From Mobula hypostoma (Eukaryota), in NCBI RefSeq assembly GCF_963921235.1, contig NC_086097.1:80726001-80790000 (forward strand): DNA of 64,000 nt. The letters run 5' to 3'. Positions 28,938-37,509 of this stretch are shown piece after piece. Below the pieces are notes generated by a model that saw only the letters and a program-made list of their open reading frames with translations, was not told the DNA's origin and ran no database searches. The position numbers and the translations under genes were made by a program. Each line of letters begins with the position of its first letter. The stretch's first letter is position 1.

Positions 28938-30039
28938 GTCTAAACCAAAGAAATAATGCCTGATGATCTTTACTTCATTTTCAAAACTTTTTTTTTTTTA
29001 AAGAGCTTTGAATCTCAGAGATGTTCAGAAATATTTATATGTTCTAAGACTCTCCATAAAAGTGAAGCATTCCATCTCAGACAACATGCAGGCATAGCTA
29101 TTTTTTCCCATCTTCAGAGCAAACATCCCTTCCTGTGATGTGGTAAACAGTACTGCACACATAATCTAACTGCCTTATACAAGGTCTGTTGCTGATAGCA
29201 GATATCAGACAATTGCAATTTCATTGGATCTCTGTGCTCTGCTGCCAACATGTGTAGTCAAACATGCCAAGCTCTTAGCAATTATCACCAGTAGCATAGT
29301 AGCATGCTGATTTGCCCTTGTTACCCTGATGTTCCAAATGATATGAGTTGAAAGGCTAAATGGCCAACACAATTGCAAGAACCACGCAGTCACTTAACAC
29401 ATCTTTTCACCATAACATACTTTGAAAATTATACCACCTAATATTGAAATGGAAAGCAAATGCATTTAGCATCAATTCAGGAACAGTGGATTCTGGTTAA
29501 TTGAGCCATCATTTACTGGGGGCAGCTGCTTATTTGGGACAACTCTGGAAGAATTAAAACTAATGAGAAAATAGCCAGATTTCCTGTCGTTTATTTGGGA
29601 CACTATGCCGACAGTTGCCAAACAGATTCTAGCTACCGTCAGACGTGTGCACTTGTGTGGCCAATAGACTCTACGCCATGCTTAGAGCGAGCAGTTTTTA
29701 AATAGTGTCAGTTACGTGCAATCTGCTTAAAAAGCTGTGATTTTTGTCACAGATAGTTGATGAGAAAGAAGCAGTAAGGCAATTCAGAATTCTTTTGCTC
29801 TTTGTGGTTCCGAGCATTCAGGCTTGGAATGCCAGAAACAGCTGAGAGTGAAAATGAAACGATTTCACTACTTCAACAAGTTTGGAACTACAATGCATTT
29901 GAAATTATCAACAATCATCTTGAATGTTACAATGAGAATGATGATTTGGAGGATGTAATCATCGAAAACTGTGTGAAGGCAGTCCATTATCTGCCCTAGA
30001 TATCTGCGGTGATTTTGTTCATTTACAGCCAATCTAAAG

Positions 30040-30470
30040 AACTCAGCTGCCACCTGGGACTCTAAGGAGCTGTTTGTATCCGACCACAGGCACACCCCAG
30101 TACACTGCTTCAATAGGCTGGCTAAACCAGGTAAGGGCGGCTGGCGGGTCTTATACTCTGTTGAAATATGCCTGTTCTAGCATGCAAAGTCAGCTTGTGG
30201 ACTGGATGGACGAGATCTACAGTAAGATCCAATGGCCAGGAAGGTAGTTCTGCAATGTTCTGTAGAAAATGAAGGGCATAACAAAACAAAGAAGAAGTCA
30301 CAGTAAACCACTGGAACCAAGGAATACCAGTTGTGAAGGCTTTTGTACTACTGGACTCGGATTTCCAAGGTTGAGAGAATAGAACTGCCCTAGTGCAATG
30401 AAGTTTCCATTTTAAAAATTCTTCTTCACAAGTTTCTTGCCATCATCAGATATGATGGACAACCACCAAA
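30040..30470 (+). repeat. Unclassified interspersed repeat, possibly RTE-derived
   Basis: Distinct composition interrupting the MITE. Family resemblance only. Confidence 0.3.
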
Positions 30471-30495
30471 CCAATTATTGGGAATTAATGCACTG

Positions 30496-32882
30496 TGTAC
30501 ATACATCTATTGCTGCTTCTGGACTCATCTTCAGTGATGTTCCTGGAATCATTGGGTGTTTCGGGTCTTACAACATCATACAACCTCCTCCAGGTGACCC
30601 AGCCGGGGCTGATCAGACCCCAGCTTGTGTCCAGATGGCTAGCTACTTATGACTCCATGGCTCCCCTCTTTTGAGCCACAGTCATCCTGAGGCCCTCTCT
30701 GCCGCATCGGTGGTACTGCGGATGGCTCTCCTCTTCCTCTCTCCCTCGATGCCCAAAATGCTGAAGGCTCTAACTAAAGAACAGGCTATGAATCCCCTAC
30801 AACCAACCTCCACTGGGAGACACCTCGCTCTCCATCCAGCCTGCTGACAGCTGCTGACCAGTCCTGCATACTTGGAGAGCTTCCTTTCAAAGGCCTCTTC
30901 CAAGCTATCTTCCCATGGGACTGTCAGCTCCAGCAGCACCACTTGCTTAGTCAACTCAGACACTAGGACAATGTCTGGTCGCAGGGTGGTGGCTGCGATA
31001 TGGTTGGGGAAATTCAGCTGCCCTTCGAGGTCCACCAACAGCTGCCAGTCCCTTGCAGAGGTCAGAATGCCTGCAGATGTTGTTTTGGCAGGTATTGGCT
31101 GCTCCCCAGCTCTCTGACAAAGGCAATGGTCTGCTTGGAGGGTCGGGACCGCTTCGCCCACTCAACTCCTGCGCTGACGGCTTCAGCGATGGTCTTCAGG
31201 ACCTGATCATGCCTCCACCTGTACCGTCCCTCACCAAGTGCCCTTGAGGATGTGCTCCAGGGTTCCTTGCTTGGAGCACAGTGGGCACACAGATGACTCT
31301 GCCTTGCCCCATGTGTGCAGATTTGATGGGCTTGGAAGCACATCGTACACTGCCTGGATGAGAAATTGGATGTGGTGCGGTTCGGCTTTCCAAAGATCAG
31401 ACCAGGTCACTTTCCTCTCAATCGCATTCTCCCATCTTGTCTAAGCTCTCTGTTGCTTCATTTCCACCACCTTGCGGGCTCTCATCTCCTCCACTACTGC
31501 TCTCACCTCCTCCTGAACTAGACGACGTCTTTCCTTCCCTCTGGTGTCCATTTGGGGAGTTGGAAAGGATCCTAGCCCAGCTCGGCCTTGTGTGACCACT
31601 CCCACCAGCCTCCTGTGACGCAACCTCGCCTCTGCCTCCTGAACAGCTTCCTCTGCCCTCCACTTCCTGCCAGTACTTACTTGGATACCTGCTCTAGCCA
31701 CCTTCGGGTCACTTGAGTCCCTATACTGTAGCACTTCTCTGGCTCTTGTTACCTTGAATTCTTCCTCCAAGGATTTGAAGGGCAGTTGCAGTTTGTTGTG
31801 GTGTCCATAGAGTGCGATGCTGCTCAGGCTCTTTGGCAGCCCCAGCCATCTCCTGAGGTGGTTGCTAACCCTCCTCTCTAAGGTTTCGACTGTCGAGATC
31901 AGAACTGCATAGATGAGGAGGGGCCACAGGATTCTGGGAAGAATGCCATGCTGATACACCCAGGCTTTAAACTTCCCAGGTAGGCCAGACTTGTCCACAG
32001 ATTTCAGCCAGCCATCCAACTTGGTGCAGGTCACCTGGATGGATGTTGTGTCCCTTAAAGAGCTGTCAAAAACTTTGCCTAAGCTCTTGACTGGCTTTTC
32101 TGTGATGGTTGGGATGGCTGTGCCTGCGATGCTAAACCGGAACTTGTTCTCCACCTTCCCTTTCCTCAGCACCATTGATCTTGATTTGGCAGGTTTGAAA
32201 TGCATCTGGGTCCACTCCACCAGCTTTTCGAGCCCTTGCAGAATCCTCCGGCAGCCTGGGACTGATTCTGTGTTGACTGCGAGGTCATCCATGAATGCCC
32301 TGATAGGTGGTTGCCGTCGAGCGGAATTCATTCTGGGCCCTCTGCGCTCTGGTTCAGCAGACTTAGTGAGCATGTTCATGGCTAGGGAGAACAGTGTCAC
32401 TGAGATAGTGCACCCTGTGATGATGCCGACCTCCACCTTGTGCCAGGTTGATGTAATTGCTCCTGAGGAGACCCTCATCCTGAACCTGCTGTAATAAGCA
32501 GTGATAAGGTCTCTGATTCTGCTGGGGACGTGATATTTGGTCAGTGTGACCTGCATCAGCTTGTGTGGAATGGAGCCATATGCATTTGCCAGGTTGAGCC
32601 ACAACACTGACAGGTTGTCCTTGTTCTCTCTGGCTTCCCTGATGAGCTGTGTCACCACACCGATGTGCTCCAGACAGCCCGGCATCCCTGAAATGCCACC
32701 CTTCTGGACTGATGTATCAATATAGGTGCTCTTTGCTAGGTAGGTGCACAGCCGGTTAAAAACTGCACTGAAGAAGATCTTCGCCTTGACACACAGCAGG
32801 GAGATGATGCGAAACTGATCTGTCTGGGTGGCATTTTCCTCCTTCGGGATCCACACTCCTTCAGCCACTCTCCACTGTTCAC
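30496..32882 (-). mobile_element. 5'-truncated Hero/R2-like non-LTR retrotransposon (RT, zinc knuckle, restriction-like endonuclease)
   Basis: EGVWIPKEE, QKGG..GCLEH, LANAYGSIPH, GCTIS, FMDD, CPLC..TLEHIL, RYRWRHDQVL and LRPDIVL..ELTVPWE..ERKLSKY. Stop and frameshifts after 31441. Confidence 0.92.
30522..30585 (-). ncRNA. Putative hammerhead ribozyme with permuted (pseudoknotted) strand order in the Hero 3' UTR
   Basis: Minus strand reads GGTTG-TA-TGATGTT-gtaa-GACCC-GAAA-CACCC-aatgattccagg-AACATCA-CTGAAGA-T-GAGTC. All core nucleotides and three stems are present. Confidence 0.65.
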
Positions 32883-33513
32883 CAGAAGAAATTCTGAAGA
32901 TGCTGGAAATCCAAAGACACGCACACAAAATGCTGGAGGATGCAATTTTCTTTCTCAATAAAAGAACCAACCAGATCCCCTCCATCACCACTCTCCTCCG
33001 TCTGGCCAAACTGGTTCTCACCCTCAACAATTTTTCCCTCGGCTCCTCCTATTTTCTCTAGACTTGAGGGGTATCCACAACATCTGCATGAGCCCCAGCT
33101 GTCCCAGCCGTCCCAGCCTTTTAGTTGGCTATGTAACACAGTCCATGTTCCAAGCACTCCCCAGTAATGCTCCCCAACTCTTCCTCCGCTAAATTGACAA
33201 TTGCATTGGTGCTGCCTTATGCACCTTTGCTGAGCTCATCAATTTCATCAACTTTGCCTCTAACTTCCACCCTGCCCTTTAAGTTCACTTGGGCCATTTG
33301 TGACATACACCTTCCCTTTTCTCAGTCTCTCTGTCTCCATCTCTGGAGATAAACTGTTGACCAACATCTTTTAATAAACTTACTGATTCCCACGGGTATC
33401 TTGACTCACTTCTTTCCACTTTGTCTCCTGTAAAAATGCTATTCACTTTTCTCAGTTCCCTTGCCTCTGCTGCATCGGTTCCCAGGATGGTTTTCCTTTC
33501 CAGGACATCAGAG

Positions 33514-36357
33514 AACTCAGAACTCAGAATCAGGTTTATTATCACCGGCATCTGAAGTGAAATTTATTAACATAGCAGCAGCAGTTCAATGCAATACATA
33601 ATCTAGCAGAAAAAAGAATAATAAATAAGTAAATCAATTACAGTATACGTATATTGAATAGATTAAAAATGTGCTAAAACAGAAATACTGTATATTAAAA
33701 AAGAGAGGTAGTGTCCAAAGATTCAATGTCCATTTAGGAATCAGATGGCAGAGGGGAAGAAGCTGTAACAGTGAGAAAACGACATGCTCTGGGTGGTGGA
33801 GTCCTTAATAATTGAAGCTACCTTTCTGAGACACCGCTCCCTGAAAACGTCCTGGGTACTTTGTAGGCAAGTACCCAAGATGGAGCTGACTAGATTTACA
33901 ACCTTCTGCAGCTTCTTTCAGTCCTGTGCAGTTGCCCCTCCATACCAGACAGTGATGCAGCCTGTTGGAATGGTCTACGGTACAACTATAGAAGTTTTTG
34001 AGTATATTTGTTGACATGCCAAATCTCTTCAAACTCCTAAAGAAGTATAGCCACTGTCTTGCCTTCTTTATAACTATATCGATATGTTGGGACCAGGTTA
34101 GGTCCTCAGAGATCTTGACACCCAGGACCTTGAAACTGCTCACTCTCTCCACTTCTGATCTCTCTATGAGGATTGGTATGTGTTCTTTCATCTTACCCTT
34201 CCTGAAGTCCACAATCAGCTCTTTCATCTTACTGACATTGATTGCCAGGTTGTTGCTGTGGCACCACTCCACTAGTTGGCATATCTCACTCCTGTACACC
34301 CTCTCGTCACCACCTGAGATTCTACCAAACATGGTTGTATCGTCAGCAAATTTATAGATGGTGTAGCCCCCTGGTCAGCCTCAGGGTCACTCAGCTCGCT
34401 GTTGCCTAGGACAACAGCCCTCAGCCCCGCCAAACTGGGTAATTAAGTTTGTGTGGATGCTGTGTGATGTACCCCACCCCACCCAAATAACAGACAATAC
34501 ACCAGATACGATTACATGATTTACAGCTTATAGATATTACTGGAACTATATAATTAATAGAGAATAAAATATAAAAGGAAAATAAAAGGTGCCACACTTA
34601 TCAAAGTTCAATCTCTTCGTGCACGAACAGTTGGAGCTCAGGACCCTCCTTCTTCACCCTGTGATCCCCTCGGACCAGCTCGACCTGCCGCCTGGGACCA
34701 ACAACGGTGGTCGACCAGACGCTCCACACGAGTCCGTCTCTGTCTTCTCTCCTCGCTGAACACCCTGGACCTCAGACTCCAGCTCGGGGTCTGACCCCGT
34801 TAGTGGACTCACAGCACCTGGTCCATCCTCTGTCTCTCTCTTCTGCCTTCTGCACAAAAATCCGCATATCACACTAACTTACGGACACACAGAAAGAATA
34901 ACATCTATCCCAATTGGTTTGTTCATCCTCTTATCAGTAACATGATCCAAATAAACTGCTAGCGGGAGGACTTTCTCAGCAGTTAACATAACAAAGAAGC
35001 CATTTCAATTATAACGTAACAAAGAGGCTATTTTAACTAGACTACGCAGTAATATAAAAGAAGAAACCCCTTACAATGGCATTTAAGCTATGCCTAGCCA
35101 CACAGTCATGCATATAGAGATAGTAGAGCAGTGGACTAAGCACACACCGCTGAGGTGCACCAGTGTTGATCGTCAGCAAAGAGGATATGTTATCACCCAT
35201 CCTCACAGATTGTGGTCTTCCGGTTAGGATGTCAAGGATCCAATTGCAGAGAGAGGTACAGATGGCCAGGTTCTGCAACTTCTCAGTCAGGATTGTGGGA
35301 AAGATGGTATTAAATGCTGAGCTATAGTCGATGAACAGCATCCTGACATGGGTGTTTGTGTTGTCTAGGTGGTCGAAAGCCATGTGGAGTGCCATTGAGA
35401 TTGAGTCTGCCATTGACCTACTGTGGTGATAGGCAAATTGCAGTGGGTCTAGGTCTTTGTTGAGGCAGGAGTTCAGTCTAGTCATGACCAACCTCTCAAA
35501 GCATTTTTATCACTGTAGATGTGAGTGTTACTGAGTGATAGTCGTTAAGGCAGCTCACATTATTCTTCTTAGGCACTGGTATAATTGTTGCCTTTTTGAA
35601 ACAAATAGGAACTTCTGCCCGTAGCAGTGAGAGGTAGCAAATGTCCTTGAGTACTCCTGCTAGTTGGCACAGGTTTTCAGAGCCTTACCAGGTACTCCAT
35701 CAGGACCTTCCACTTTACGAGGGTTCACTCTCTTTAAAGACAGCCTAGCATCGGCCTCTGAGATGGAGATCACAGGGTCGTTAGGTGCAGTAGAGATCTT
35801 CACAGCTGTAGTTGTGTCCTCCCTTTCATAGCATGCATAGAAAGTGTTGAGTTCATCTGGTGGTGAAGCATCACTGCCTTTCATTCTATTGGGTTTCGCT
35901 TTGTAAGAAGTAATGTCTTGCAAACCCCGCCAGAGTTGCCATGCTTCCAATGTCACCGGCAACCTCATTTGAAATTGTCTCTTTGCCCTTGAATAGCCTT
36001 CTGCAAATCATACTTGGTGTTTTGGTACAGGCCTGGGTCGCCAGACTTGAATGCCACAGATCCAGCCTTCAGCAGATGACGTACCTCCTGGTTCATCCAT
36101 GGCTTTTGGTTTGGGAATGTACAGTAAGTCTTTGTGGGCACACACTCATCCACACAGGTTTTAATGAAATCAGTAGTAACTACAGCATACATATCCAGAT
36201 TCGAAGATGAATCCCTGAATACAGTCCAGTCCACCGATTCAAAGCAGTCTTGTAGGTGCTCCTGTGCTTCCCTTGTTCGTACCTTCTTGGTCCTCACTAC
36301 TGGTGCTGCAGTCTTTAGTCTCTGCCTATACTCAGGGAGTAGAAGTACAGCTAGGTG
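33514..36357 (-). mobile_element. Rex1/Babar-like LINE containing a solo LTR
   Basis: [28 protein letters not shown] and KFADD, with a (ttctga)-type tail at 33514-33535. Confidence 0.92.
34362..35075. mobile_element. Solo LTR, same family as 3767-4385
   Basis: TGTA...TACA termini with perfect TSD ATGG (34358-34361 / 35076-35079). Splits the Rex RT just before YKFADD. Confidence 0.92.
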
Positions 36358-37509
36358 ATGTCCTCCTTCTTCAACGAATGGGGCGTTCCCTTCCTCACTT
36401 GCTCTTTCTCCATTTTCCATGCTCACCCCATCTTCCCATTGCCTTAACAGTGATAGAGCTCCTCTTGTCCTTACCTTTCACTGTATGAGCCTCTACATCT
36501 AACACATCATTCTCTGTAACTTCTGCCATCTCCAAAGGGATGCTTGCACCATACATATCTTTACCTCCATCCCCCTCTCCGCTTCCTGTAGGGATCACTC
36601 CTTCCGTGATTCCATTGTCCATCCAACCCTCCTATTAATCTCCGCGGCATTTAGTGCTATACCTGCCCATCCACCTCCTCTCTCGCTTCTATTCAGGGCC
36701 CCAAACTATCCTTCCATTTGAGGCAACACTTCACCTGTGAATCTGCTGGAGTTGTCTATTGTGTCCAGAGCTCCTGATGCAACCTCCTCCATATTGGTGA
36801 GACCTGTCATAAATCGGGGGACCACTTTGTCGAGCACCTCTGCTCCATCTGCCAAAAACGGTGGCCAAACGTTTTAATCTGGTTCCAATTCCCATTCCGA
36901 TATGTTGGTCAATGGCCTCCTCTTGTGCTATGATGAGGTTCCCCTCAGGGTGGAGGAATGACACTTTATACTCCCTTTGGGTAGCCTCCATCCTGATGGC
37001 ATGAATATCGATTTCTGCTTCCGGTGAATTTTTTTCTCTCTTCCCCTCTGCTCTTCTTCAATTCCCCACTTTGGCCTCTTACCTTTTCTCACCTGCCTAT
37101 CACTTCTCCCTGGATCCCCTCCTCCTCCCCCTTTTCCTGTGGTCCACTCCCCTCTCCAAACCTTTCCTACCACACCTGGCTTTACCTATCACCTTCCAGC
37201 TATCCTCCTTCCCCTCCCCCCCTTTTTATTCTGGCATCTTCCCCCCTTCCCTTCCAGTCCTGAGAAGATTTTCCGCCCAAAACGTTGGCTGTTCATTTCC
37301 ATGACACACCTGCTGAGTTCCTCCAACATTTTGTGCGTGTTGCAGTTTTACATAACTGTAGTAGTATTGACAGTTTTCTAATTTGTTCTACATTTCATTT
37401 AAATACATAATTCATTACTTAGAAATACATAATATGTTACATAGTTAAACTGTATTTTTTTTTACACCTTTTTAACTATTCTATGAAACTTTGGCCAATT
37501 GGCCACACT

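Follow-up and report, generated by a model that had tools for sequence, protein, structure and literature searches.

A non-classically wired hammerhead domain, predicted from comparative sequence analysis, at the start of the 3′ untranslated region of Hero-like retrotransposons

Hammerhead ribozymes can be divided into three blocks of conserved sequence, designated S (III-UH-I), G (II-GAAA-III) and C (I-CUGAnGA-II) by Eckert, Friedrich, C.E. Weinberg and Z. Weinberg (Nucleic Acids Research; Eckert et al. 2023, PMC10085705). As described there, the blocks also occur naturally in orders that are not circular permutations of the classical one: type SGC, shown in vitro to cleave where predicted, together with type CSG and a type GCS that is in doubt. 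Type SGC typically has a linker of three nucleotides (nt) between the distal ends of stems I and II. Known alignments have at most one or two nt inserted next to CUGAnGA, and the blocks themselves are assumed never to be interrupted (PMC10085705). The published examples come from IMG/M metagenome and metatranscriptome contigs and from one bacterial RefSeq record, and a term search of the text and supplement, as far as these were accessible, found retrotransposons only in the titles of cited works. Here we describe a related RNA domain in a retrotransposon of Mobula hypostoma. The stretch analysed (the window) comprises 64,000 nt of contig NC_086097.1 (assembly GCF_963921235.1, positions 80,726,001 to 80,790,000), numbered from its first letter; the element lies on its minus strand and is a long interspersed nuclear element (LINE) of the R2 group that encodes a restriction-like endonuclease, which fits the Hero clade.

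Ribozymes have been reported in other retroelements. The hammerheads of Penelope-like elements are of type I, lack a stable stem III and act as dimers (Cervera and de la Pena 2014, PMC4209133; Lunse et al. 2017), and their hosts encode a GIY-YIG nuclease and a telomerase-like reverse transcriptase (PMC4209133). Like these hammerheads, the Hero domain occupies the terminal non-coding part of a retroelement that is often found in head-to-tail partial tandems; unlike them, it is carried by a LINE of the R2 group whose protein combines a CCHC motif with a restriction-like endonuclease, and it has a full three-stem core in permuted order. The ribozymes of R2 and other LINEs that resemble that of hepatitis delta virus (HDV) are located at the 5′ end and cut at the element boundary (Eickbush and Eickbush 2010; Ruminski et al. 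2011; PMC3636483, PMC3774820). These too represent a ribozyme fold in an R2-group LINE, and are thought to free the element RNA from a co-transcript, but they are of another ribozyme class, and the site predicted for Hero is internal, 86 nt from the 3′ end. We found no description of the Hero form in the open-access and bioRxiv literature (subscription-only papers not being covered), neither in work on hammerheads or ribozymes in connection with Hero, NeSL, restriction-like endonucleases, LINEs or teleosts nor in papers mentioning non-circular permutation. The wiring of the fold is apparently undescribed for any retrotransposon.

We interpret positions 30635-30518 of the minus strand as one copy of an RNA domain of ~120 nt that forms the start of the 3′ untranslated region (UTR) in the Hero clade and that is, with a probability of about 0.7, a hammerhead wired in a non-classical way, cleavage being predicted. 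From 5′ to 3′, the proposed order of its parts is the 5′ strands of helix P1, hairpin P2, the 5′ strands of stem II and helix P3, the first core block (III 5′-U-H-I 5′), a linker, the second core block (II 3′-GAAA-III 3′), the 3′ strand of P3, the 3′ strand of stem I with CUGANGA, and the 3′ strand of P1 (Table 1). A preliminary description of this locus, made from its sequence alone, had given minus-strand positions 30585-30522 as GGUUG-UA-UGAUGUU-GUAA-GACCC-GAAA-CACCC-AAUGAUUCCAGG-AACAUCA-CUGAAGA-U-GAGUC, with core residues GUA at 30581-30579, GAAA at 30562-30559 and CUGAAGA at 30534-30528; sequence and coordinates are exact. We agree with it in several further respects. A complete hammerhead core is in register with stems I and III (stem I, UGAUGUU/AACAUCA, a perfect 7 base pairs (bp); stem III, 5 of 6 pairs), and the strand order, S followed by G followed by I-CUGANGA, lies outside the circular permutations of types I-III. 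As also published for type SGC (PMC10085705), only a short linker separates stem I from stem II at their distal ends. Cleavage is likewise predicted between 30579 and 30578, and the assignment to a Hero/R2-like LINE is consistent with the host described below. Its expectation that standard hammerhead models would miss the motif was also borne out: Rfam gave no match at gathering score over the whole window, three weak unrelated matches and no ribozyme at E ≤10 in window 30000-31200, and nothing at the domain at E ≤1 in eight relatives, as expected from the permuted strand order.

Conservation could not be judged from the Mobula copies by themselves. A 281-nt query gave 1038 first-look candidates in the 3.48-Gb assembly, and the 40 that were scored are 95-100% identical; these copies are young and therefore no test of conservation. 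A foreign Hero protein used as query returned 30 loci, all of this same young family, with no more divergent family among them; the cross-species evidence was therefore drawn from metagenome contigs. A profile of 21 Hero proteins yielded 359 confirmed relatives in such contigs, and 79 loci, of 34-86% protein identity, were kept. Of the 37 Hero-like C-termini followed by at least 170 nt of sequence, 30 have the pattern GAAA-N10-45-CUGANGA no more than 450 nt after the stop codon. Among the seven without it, L125 lies on a contig that ends inside the motif and L083 is a decayed copy; in L099 and L100 the motif is found ~1.6 kb downstream of the stop. The core together with all three stems could be parsed in 34 distinct sequences from the relatives.

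An alignment of 33 copies was made with MAFFT, which is blind to structure and misaligned a few rows, an error that lowers pair counts rather than raising them; the mean column identity is 42%. Seven columns only are invariant (A15.1, C3, U4, G5, A6, G8 and A9), and all of them belong to the core. Those conserved in at least 90% of copies are C11.1, G12, A13, A14, C15.2, G16.2, U16.1, the distal C-G pair of stem II and one G of the kink-turn (k-turn) described below. N7 is free (U 18, C 8, A 6, G 1) and H17 is any base but G (A 12, C 11, U 10, G 0); these two positions vary as is known for true hammerheads, a tolerance specific to that class. U16.1-A15.1 is a U-A pair in 31 of 33 copies and G10.1-C11.1 a G-C pair in 28 of 31.

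The alignment of relatives' 3′ UTRs, which the preliminary description had put forward as a check, also supports the stems. The four proximal pairs of stem I are paired in 93.7% of cells, with changes on both sides in 4 of 4; the corresponding values are 92.2% and 3 of 5 for stem II (with an upstream partner, see below) and 90.5% and 5 of 6 for stem III. Stems I-III together are paired in 91.9% of cells, with 12 of 15 pairs compensatory, compared with 69.6% after shuffling (none of 500 shuffles is as high) and 35-44% when partners are slid by 1-3 columns; the covariation score is 0.553 versus 0.191. The additional helices are paired in 76.8% (P1), 79.3% (P2) and 74.4% (P3) of cells, with changes on both sides in 6 of 6, 6 of 6 and 6 of 7 pairs, respectively. 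For all six helices the figures are 83.3% of cells and 30 of 34 compensatory pairs, the controls giving 60.0% (shuffles) and 34-44% (slid partners). RNAalifold returns P1, part of P2 and stem III when no structure is imposed, and P3 is predicted by a single-sequence fold. The sequence and pairing features that mark a hammerhead core are all found: C3 U4 G5 A6 N7 G8 A9, G12 A13 A14 with A15.1-U16.1, an H17 that is not G, and three covarying helices in register. We take comparative evidence of this kind to show that selection maintains, on the sense strand of these elements, an RNA structure built around a hammerhead core.

The partner of stem II lies upstream of the cleavage-site block: GACCC covaries with GGGUC at 30600-30596, and in other lineages the two strands read GGCGC/GCGCC, GGCCU/AGGCC, GCUCC/GGAGC or GGCCC/GGGCC. 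The bases that follow A9 pair instead with a strand far upstream to form P1 (UCUGGACACA/UGUGUCCAGA in the family). In 28 of 33 copies A9 is immediately followed by P1, and in 21 of 33 the helix has at least 9 contiguous bp. At 30525 the window copy has A instead of the U of the family, which produces an A-A mismatch in P1. P2 follows P1 without a spacer and itself adjoins stem II, and A9 and G10.1 would therefore be linked via a four-way junction. As read from these pairings, the domain is built on a four-way junction at which P1, P2 and stem II meet the core, with block C split after A9.

The link between P3 and stem III has a form of its own, (P3)-N-GA-(III) on the 5′ strand and (III)-NNN-GA-N-(P3) on the 3′ strand; in the window copy these read CCUGGA-G-GA-GGUUG and CACCC-AAU-GA-U-UCCAGG. 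The consensus k-turn, as found in Kt-7 and in box C/D RNAs, consists of a canonical stem, a 3-nt bulge, tandem sheared G.A/A.G pairs and a non-canonical stem. Set against it, stem III of Hero corresponds to the canonical stem, followed by the 3-nt bulge and the tandem G.A/A.G, with P3 as the second stem, the three-dimensional form being predicted. In 22 of 33 copies both strands carry the signature, whereas the bulge of a distant group (L121, L137) is 5 nt long. To our knowledge, no k-turn has been reported as part of a hammerhead. The kink would bend P3 backwards alongside stem III and bring it to the far ends of stems I and II, which P3 meets with spacers of 0-1 nt (30595 is the only spacer base in the window copy).

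Table 1. Parts of the predicted RNA domain and of its host element in the window
Feature	Position	Strand	Remarks
P1 5′ strand, UCUGGACACA	30626..30635	-	pairs with the bases directly after A9 and closes the domain; begins 10 nt 3′ of the family stop codon
P2 hairpin, AGCUGGGG...CCCCGGCU	30601..30625	-	adjoins P1 and stem II without spacer; palindrome UGAUCA in apical loop
Stem II 5′ strand, GGGUC	30596..30600	-	G10.1 = 30600; 5′ of the cleavage-site block; pairs with 30567-30563
P3 5′ strand, CCUGGAG	30588..30594	-	joins the far sides of stems I and II; non-canonical stem of the putative k-turn
GA of the unbulged k-turn strand	30586..30587	-	k-turn signature on both strands in 22/33 copies
Stem III 5′ strand GGUUG, with U16.1 (30580) and H17 (30579)	30579..30585	-	predicted scissile bond between 30579 and 30578
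Stem I 5′ strand, UGAUGUU	30572..30578	-	four proximal pairs 93.7% paired
4-nt linker between distal ends of stems I and II	30568..30571	-	GUAA here, GAAA in the family
Stem II 3′ strand GACCC, then G12 A13 A14 A15.1 (GAAA)	30559..30567	-	A15.1 invariant
Stem III 3′ strand CACCC, then k-turn bulge AAU and GA	30549..30558	-	k-turn G = 30550, at least 90% conserved
P3 3′ strand, UUCCAGG	30542..30548	-	joins stem I without spacer
Stem I 3′ strand AACAUCA, then C3 U4 G5 A6 N7 G8 A9 (CUGAAGA)	30528..30541	-	C3, U4, G5, A6, G8 and A9 invariant in 33/33
P1 3′ strand, UGAGUCCAGA	30518..30527	-	first five paired bases are those of the stem II first proposed
Element 3′ tail	30493..30517	-	ends ...GUACACAG, without poly(A)
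Decayed open reading frame (ORF)	30646..33235	-	reverse transcriptase, CCHC motif, restriction-like endonuclease; frameshifts and a premature TGA relative to the family frame

How does this fold compare with known hammerheads? It shares with the classical types I, II and III the catalytic core, the pairs G10.1-C11.1, C15.2-G16.2 and A15.1-U16.1, the predicted cleavage after H17 and the placing of stems I and II side by side, but its order is no circular permutation of theirs, it has no simple three-way junction and it matches no Rfam model. The likeness to type SGC is closer: the three core blocks with all of their conserved nucleotides, the cyclic order S-G-C, a short linker from stem I to stem II, an extra helix (P3 in Hero) tying the other sides of these two stems, and stems that cross as pseudoknots. 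In the Hero form, unlike type SGC, A9 and G10.1 are separated by the P1/P2 unit and the chain ends, block S is preceded by the 5′ strand of stem II, and the link between stem III and P3 is closed on both strands by the putative k-turn; a term search for 'kink' and 'k-turn' in the accessible supplement of PMC10085705 found neither. The Hero chain is thus closed at all three links between blocks and opened inside block C, which in type SGC is uninterrupted. Whilst type SGC has been shown to cleave, the Hero form is known from sequence alone.

The domain could instead be a structured 3′ UTR signal, bound by the reverse transcriptase of the element to begin target-primed reverse transcription, as R2 and other 'stringent' LINEs do, and a hammerhead only in appearance, without cutting activity. 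On this view an ancestral ribozyme may have lost its function through the interruption after A9 and been retained as a scaffold. Its place near the 3′ end, where LINE reverse transcriptases bind, would suit such a role, as would the k-turn, a typical protein-binding motif. None of 39 sampled copies is truncated at the predicted site, as expected for an intact template, and the R2 protein is reported to bind a pseudoknotted RNA (PMC12222951). A protein site has, however, no reason to keep every residue of hammerhead chemistry invariant or nearly so whilst leaving only N7 (any base) and H17 (never G in 33 copies) free, nor to retain G10.1-C11.1 and C15.2-G16.2 as natural hammerheads do. We consider a non-cutting signal unlikely as the whole explanation, and the two roles are in any case compatible with one another.

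The exact model of the preliminary description, a plain type-SGC hammerhead with an uninterrupted block C in which the bases after CUGAAGA-U pair with GACCC (30567-30563) as stem II, fares much worse. These bases read GUGUC in 27 of 30 genomic copies, GAGUC in two (including the window copy) and GUCUC in one, and GUGUC recurs in 27 of 30 further copies. Family GUGUC, like GAGUC in the window, can form 4 of 5 pairs with GACCC and might provide an alternative conformer competing with P1. Across the 33 relatives, however, this pairing is found in 51.5% of cells, within the 32-53% given by slid partners, whereas the upstream partner is paired in 92.2% with compensatory changes and the bases after A9 covary with the far-upstream strand as P1. 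The downstream partner was rejected on this basis, and we regard the plain model as very improbable. Of the features of type SGC, the Hero domain thus has the block order, the linker (GAAA in 29 of 30 aligned genomic copies, GUAA in the window copy) and the tying helix, but no uninterrupted block C. The claim that the topology was undescribed also has to be withdrawn: the strand order reported is that of type SGC, and the topology as such had therefore already been published, and validated in vitro, in 2023 (PMC10085705). The earlier interpretation is in sum partly supported: its main point stands, whereas its stem II and its claim to priority do not.

At the window site itself the motif is more than chance. 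The bare pattern GAAA-N10-45-CUGANGA has 14 matches in the 64 kb, but a descriptor of the core with three stems has one match on both strands together, which is this site, and 50 composition-preserving shuffles gave a mean of 0.02 full-descriptor matches per window. A chance look-alike in a repeat, conserved only through the youth of its copies (~95-98% identical within the genome and uninformative alone), is refuted by these shuffles, by the parse of the relatives, by the pairing of all six helices and by the covariation of stems I-III, the motif and its pairings persisting where the proteins are only 34-65% identical.

If the domain is a ribozyme, its RNA would cleave itself after H17 (30579|30578) by the usual hammerhead chemistry. 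The 5′ product would keep the 5′ strands of P1, II, P3 and III, and the 3′ product, 86 nt in the family, their partners; clamped together by these four helices (~25-30 bp), the products would readily religate and cleavage would therefore be easily reversed. The ribozyme might serve to process transcripts of read-through or of tandem copies into unit RNAs, a suggestion made with low certainty. Equally uncertain is a possible connection to translation. Of 25 loci, 14 have their stop codon within P1/P2 and four more have it at most 9 nt 5′ of P1 (18 of 25 in total); in the window, the family stop codon would be at 30646-30648, and P1 starts at 30635. Where the stop codon is inside P1/P2, part of the closing helix is coding and a terminating ribosome would therefore hold it open, such that the ribozyme might fold only when the stop codon, within or adjoining P1, is clear of ribosomes.

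Several points weigh against the reading of the domain as a hammerhead ribozyme. The distant loci L096, L101 and L134 have no motif within 420 nt of the stop codon, and the metagenome copies come from contigs of unidentified host organisms. The helices were first read by eye from the same sequences, and the comparison with slid partners is therefore somewhat inflated; as the aligned sequences are related, the shuffle counts are not probabilities. The activity of a core interrupted after A9 is predicted only. The RNA runs found (n=22) are all assembled contigs, which cannot show RNA ends: contigs of four runs span the site and contig breaks occur near a polymorphic base, and both are uninformative on the ends of molecules either way. 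Finally, none of the 39 sampled genomic copies starts at the predicted cleavage site; among newly fetched copies, 29 of 30 continue upstream of it and one is truncated ~10 nt upstream. The RNA that was reverse transcribed must therefore have been continuous, or held continuous, across the site. We consider the missing genomic footprint neutral, because a polymerase crossing or jumping a clamped nick leaves no trace.

Further clues to the behaviour of the element come from the arrangement of its copies. In BLAST comparisons, 13 of 30 near-full-length copies are preceded head-to-tail by a 5′-truncated copy of the same element. A search by exact pattern found the junction ...GTACACAG|YTTACACCC (in RNA, ...GUACACAG|YUUACACC) to be identical in ten loci: L031 (1014-1500, junction 1229|1230), L034, L035, L038, L040, L043, L045, L046, L053 and L059. 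Head-to-tail arrangements are also found on the metagenome contigs L063, L065, L070, L119 and L139. The precision of these junctions fits template jumping or the copying of multimeric or circular RNA. The upstream partial copies start at query positions 1, 13, 93, 151, 184 and 197, and none at the cleavage site (143). Nine of the 13 upstream pieces are long enough to hold the whole domain, and by analogy with the HDV-like ribozymes of R2 an upstream ribozyme in such arrays could free the downstream unit from a read-through transcript. An ORF starting from an AUG in the tail of the upstream copy was considered and dropped because the frame, although open in L031 and L034, is closed in L035 and in other lineages.

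The apex of P2 carries a self-complementary hexamer (UGAUCA, UGGCCA, GACGUC, UGUACA or CCUAGG) in 24 of 33 copies, at 30610-30615 in the window copy, although some palindrome would arise by chance in the 30-nt stretch searched roughly four times in ten. The hexamer lies at the apex of a hairpin and differs from lineage to lineage through paired substitutions, which are of no use inside the hairpin itself; this suggests loop-loop pairing of two RNAs. The P2 loop may thus act as a kissing-loop dimer signal, or the palindrome may be a DNA site; we treat it as a lead, not a result.

Taken together, these strands allow a wider proposal, tentative as a whole, for the Hero LINEs of chordates. They would possess a further hammerhead topology, beyond the six orders of uninterrupted blocks, with the core split after A9 by a four-way junction, closure by a k-turn, folding gated by translation through a stop codon in the closing helix, and a palindromic loop that pairs two RNAs. 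The domain would then be a device for nicking and resealing that cuts read-through or tandem transcripts into unit RNAs whose two ends re-form it. If this proves true, circles or template switching would be allowed, which would in turn explain the precise head-to-tail partial tandems.

Non-circularly permuted hammerheads have so far been seen mainly in environmental sequence from unknown hosts, apart from one bacterial record (PMC10085705); the Hero domain would give one a named biological setting, a whole clade of retrotransposons in animals, for which this genome by itself offers at least about a thousand candidate copies. The Hero form would also break the working assumption that the CUGAnGA block stays uninterrupted. 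Searches with descriptors that rest on this assumption will have missed interrupted forms. The R2 group would gain a second, predicted class of ribozyme, this one in the 3′ UTR and not at the 5′ end, and it becomes possible to test directly how Hero RNAs are processed, whether they dimerise and how tandems arise.

The identity of the host element is supported by several features of its protein. ORFs upstream of the motif, on the same strand, match Pfam RVT_1 (E 1.7e-16), and the best PDB matches of the reverse transcriptase are R2 proteins (E 1e-16). The C-terminal part contains a CPLC...H (CCHC) motif and the nuclease motif RPD...ELTVPWE, consistent with an R2-group LINE with a restriction-like endonuclease such as Hero. 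With the 352 C-terminal residues of an open copy as query, 372 proteins matched at E ≤1e-5. The named homologues are nearly all from teleosts, with some from Branchiostoma, and include a Tetraodon 'polyprotein' and a Takifugu reverse transcriptase, which we take to be HEROTn and HEROFr, respectively; it is on these that the label 'Hero' is plausible. Amongst R2-group elements, HEROTn and HEROFr are named as lacking site-specific insertion (PMC3636483). Over its C-terminal 310 residues the Mobula family protein is 77-85% identical to annotated proteins of fish from widely separated orders, namely flatfish, conger, pipefish, herring, catfish and sucker, whilst other Hero proteins of the same fish species are ~55-65% identical to it.

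The window copy is dead: its ORF is spread over several frames and has a premature TGA, where the family reads through to a TAG 10 nt 5′ of the RNA domain, and P1 is mismatched, but the hammerhead core is still intact. The 40 scored genomic copies all end at ...GUACACAG (window 30493). In 30 of 30 aligned copies similarity is lost after ...ACACAG or ...ACACAA, and the same holds for 30 further copies; in both sets the flanks differ from copy to copy. A (TG)n or (GAGT)n microsatellite lies directly 3′ of L021 and L024, the 28 other copies having unrelated flanks with no target preference evident.

Among the sampled copies, L031 alone has an uninterrupted frame, of 1166 codons, and its 3′ domain carries three private changes in stems II and III (the positions of its stem II/III variants, including a family polymorphism, are 4763, 4794, 4805 and 4776). 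The family polymorphism, GGUUG to GGGUG, mends the U-C mismatch of stem III and is predominant in contigs of one other organism. The 5′ UTR (L031:1230-1400, and the downstream parts of L068, L071, L076, L078 and L080) is conserved at the nucleotide level between distant elements and contains repeated GTGAC-containing units (CCAGTGACA..CCAGGAAAG..CTGG..TGACAAC...), for which no Rfam match was found in L031. Directly upstream of the element in the window, at 33805-36477 on the minus strand, lies the remnant of a second, different LINE, with pieces of RVT_1 and a match resembling Pfam ALKBH8_N.

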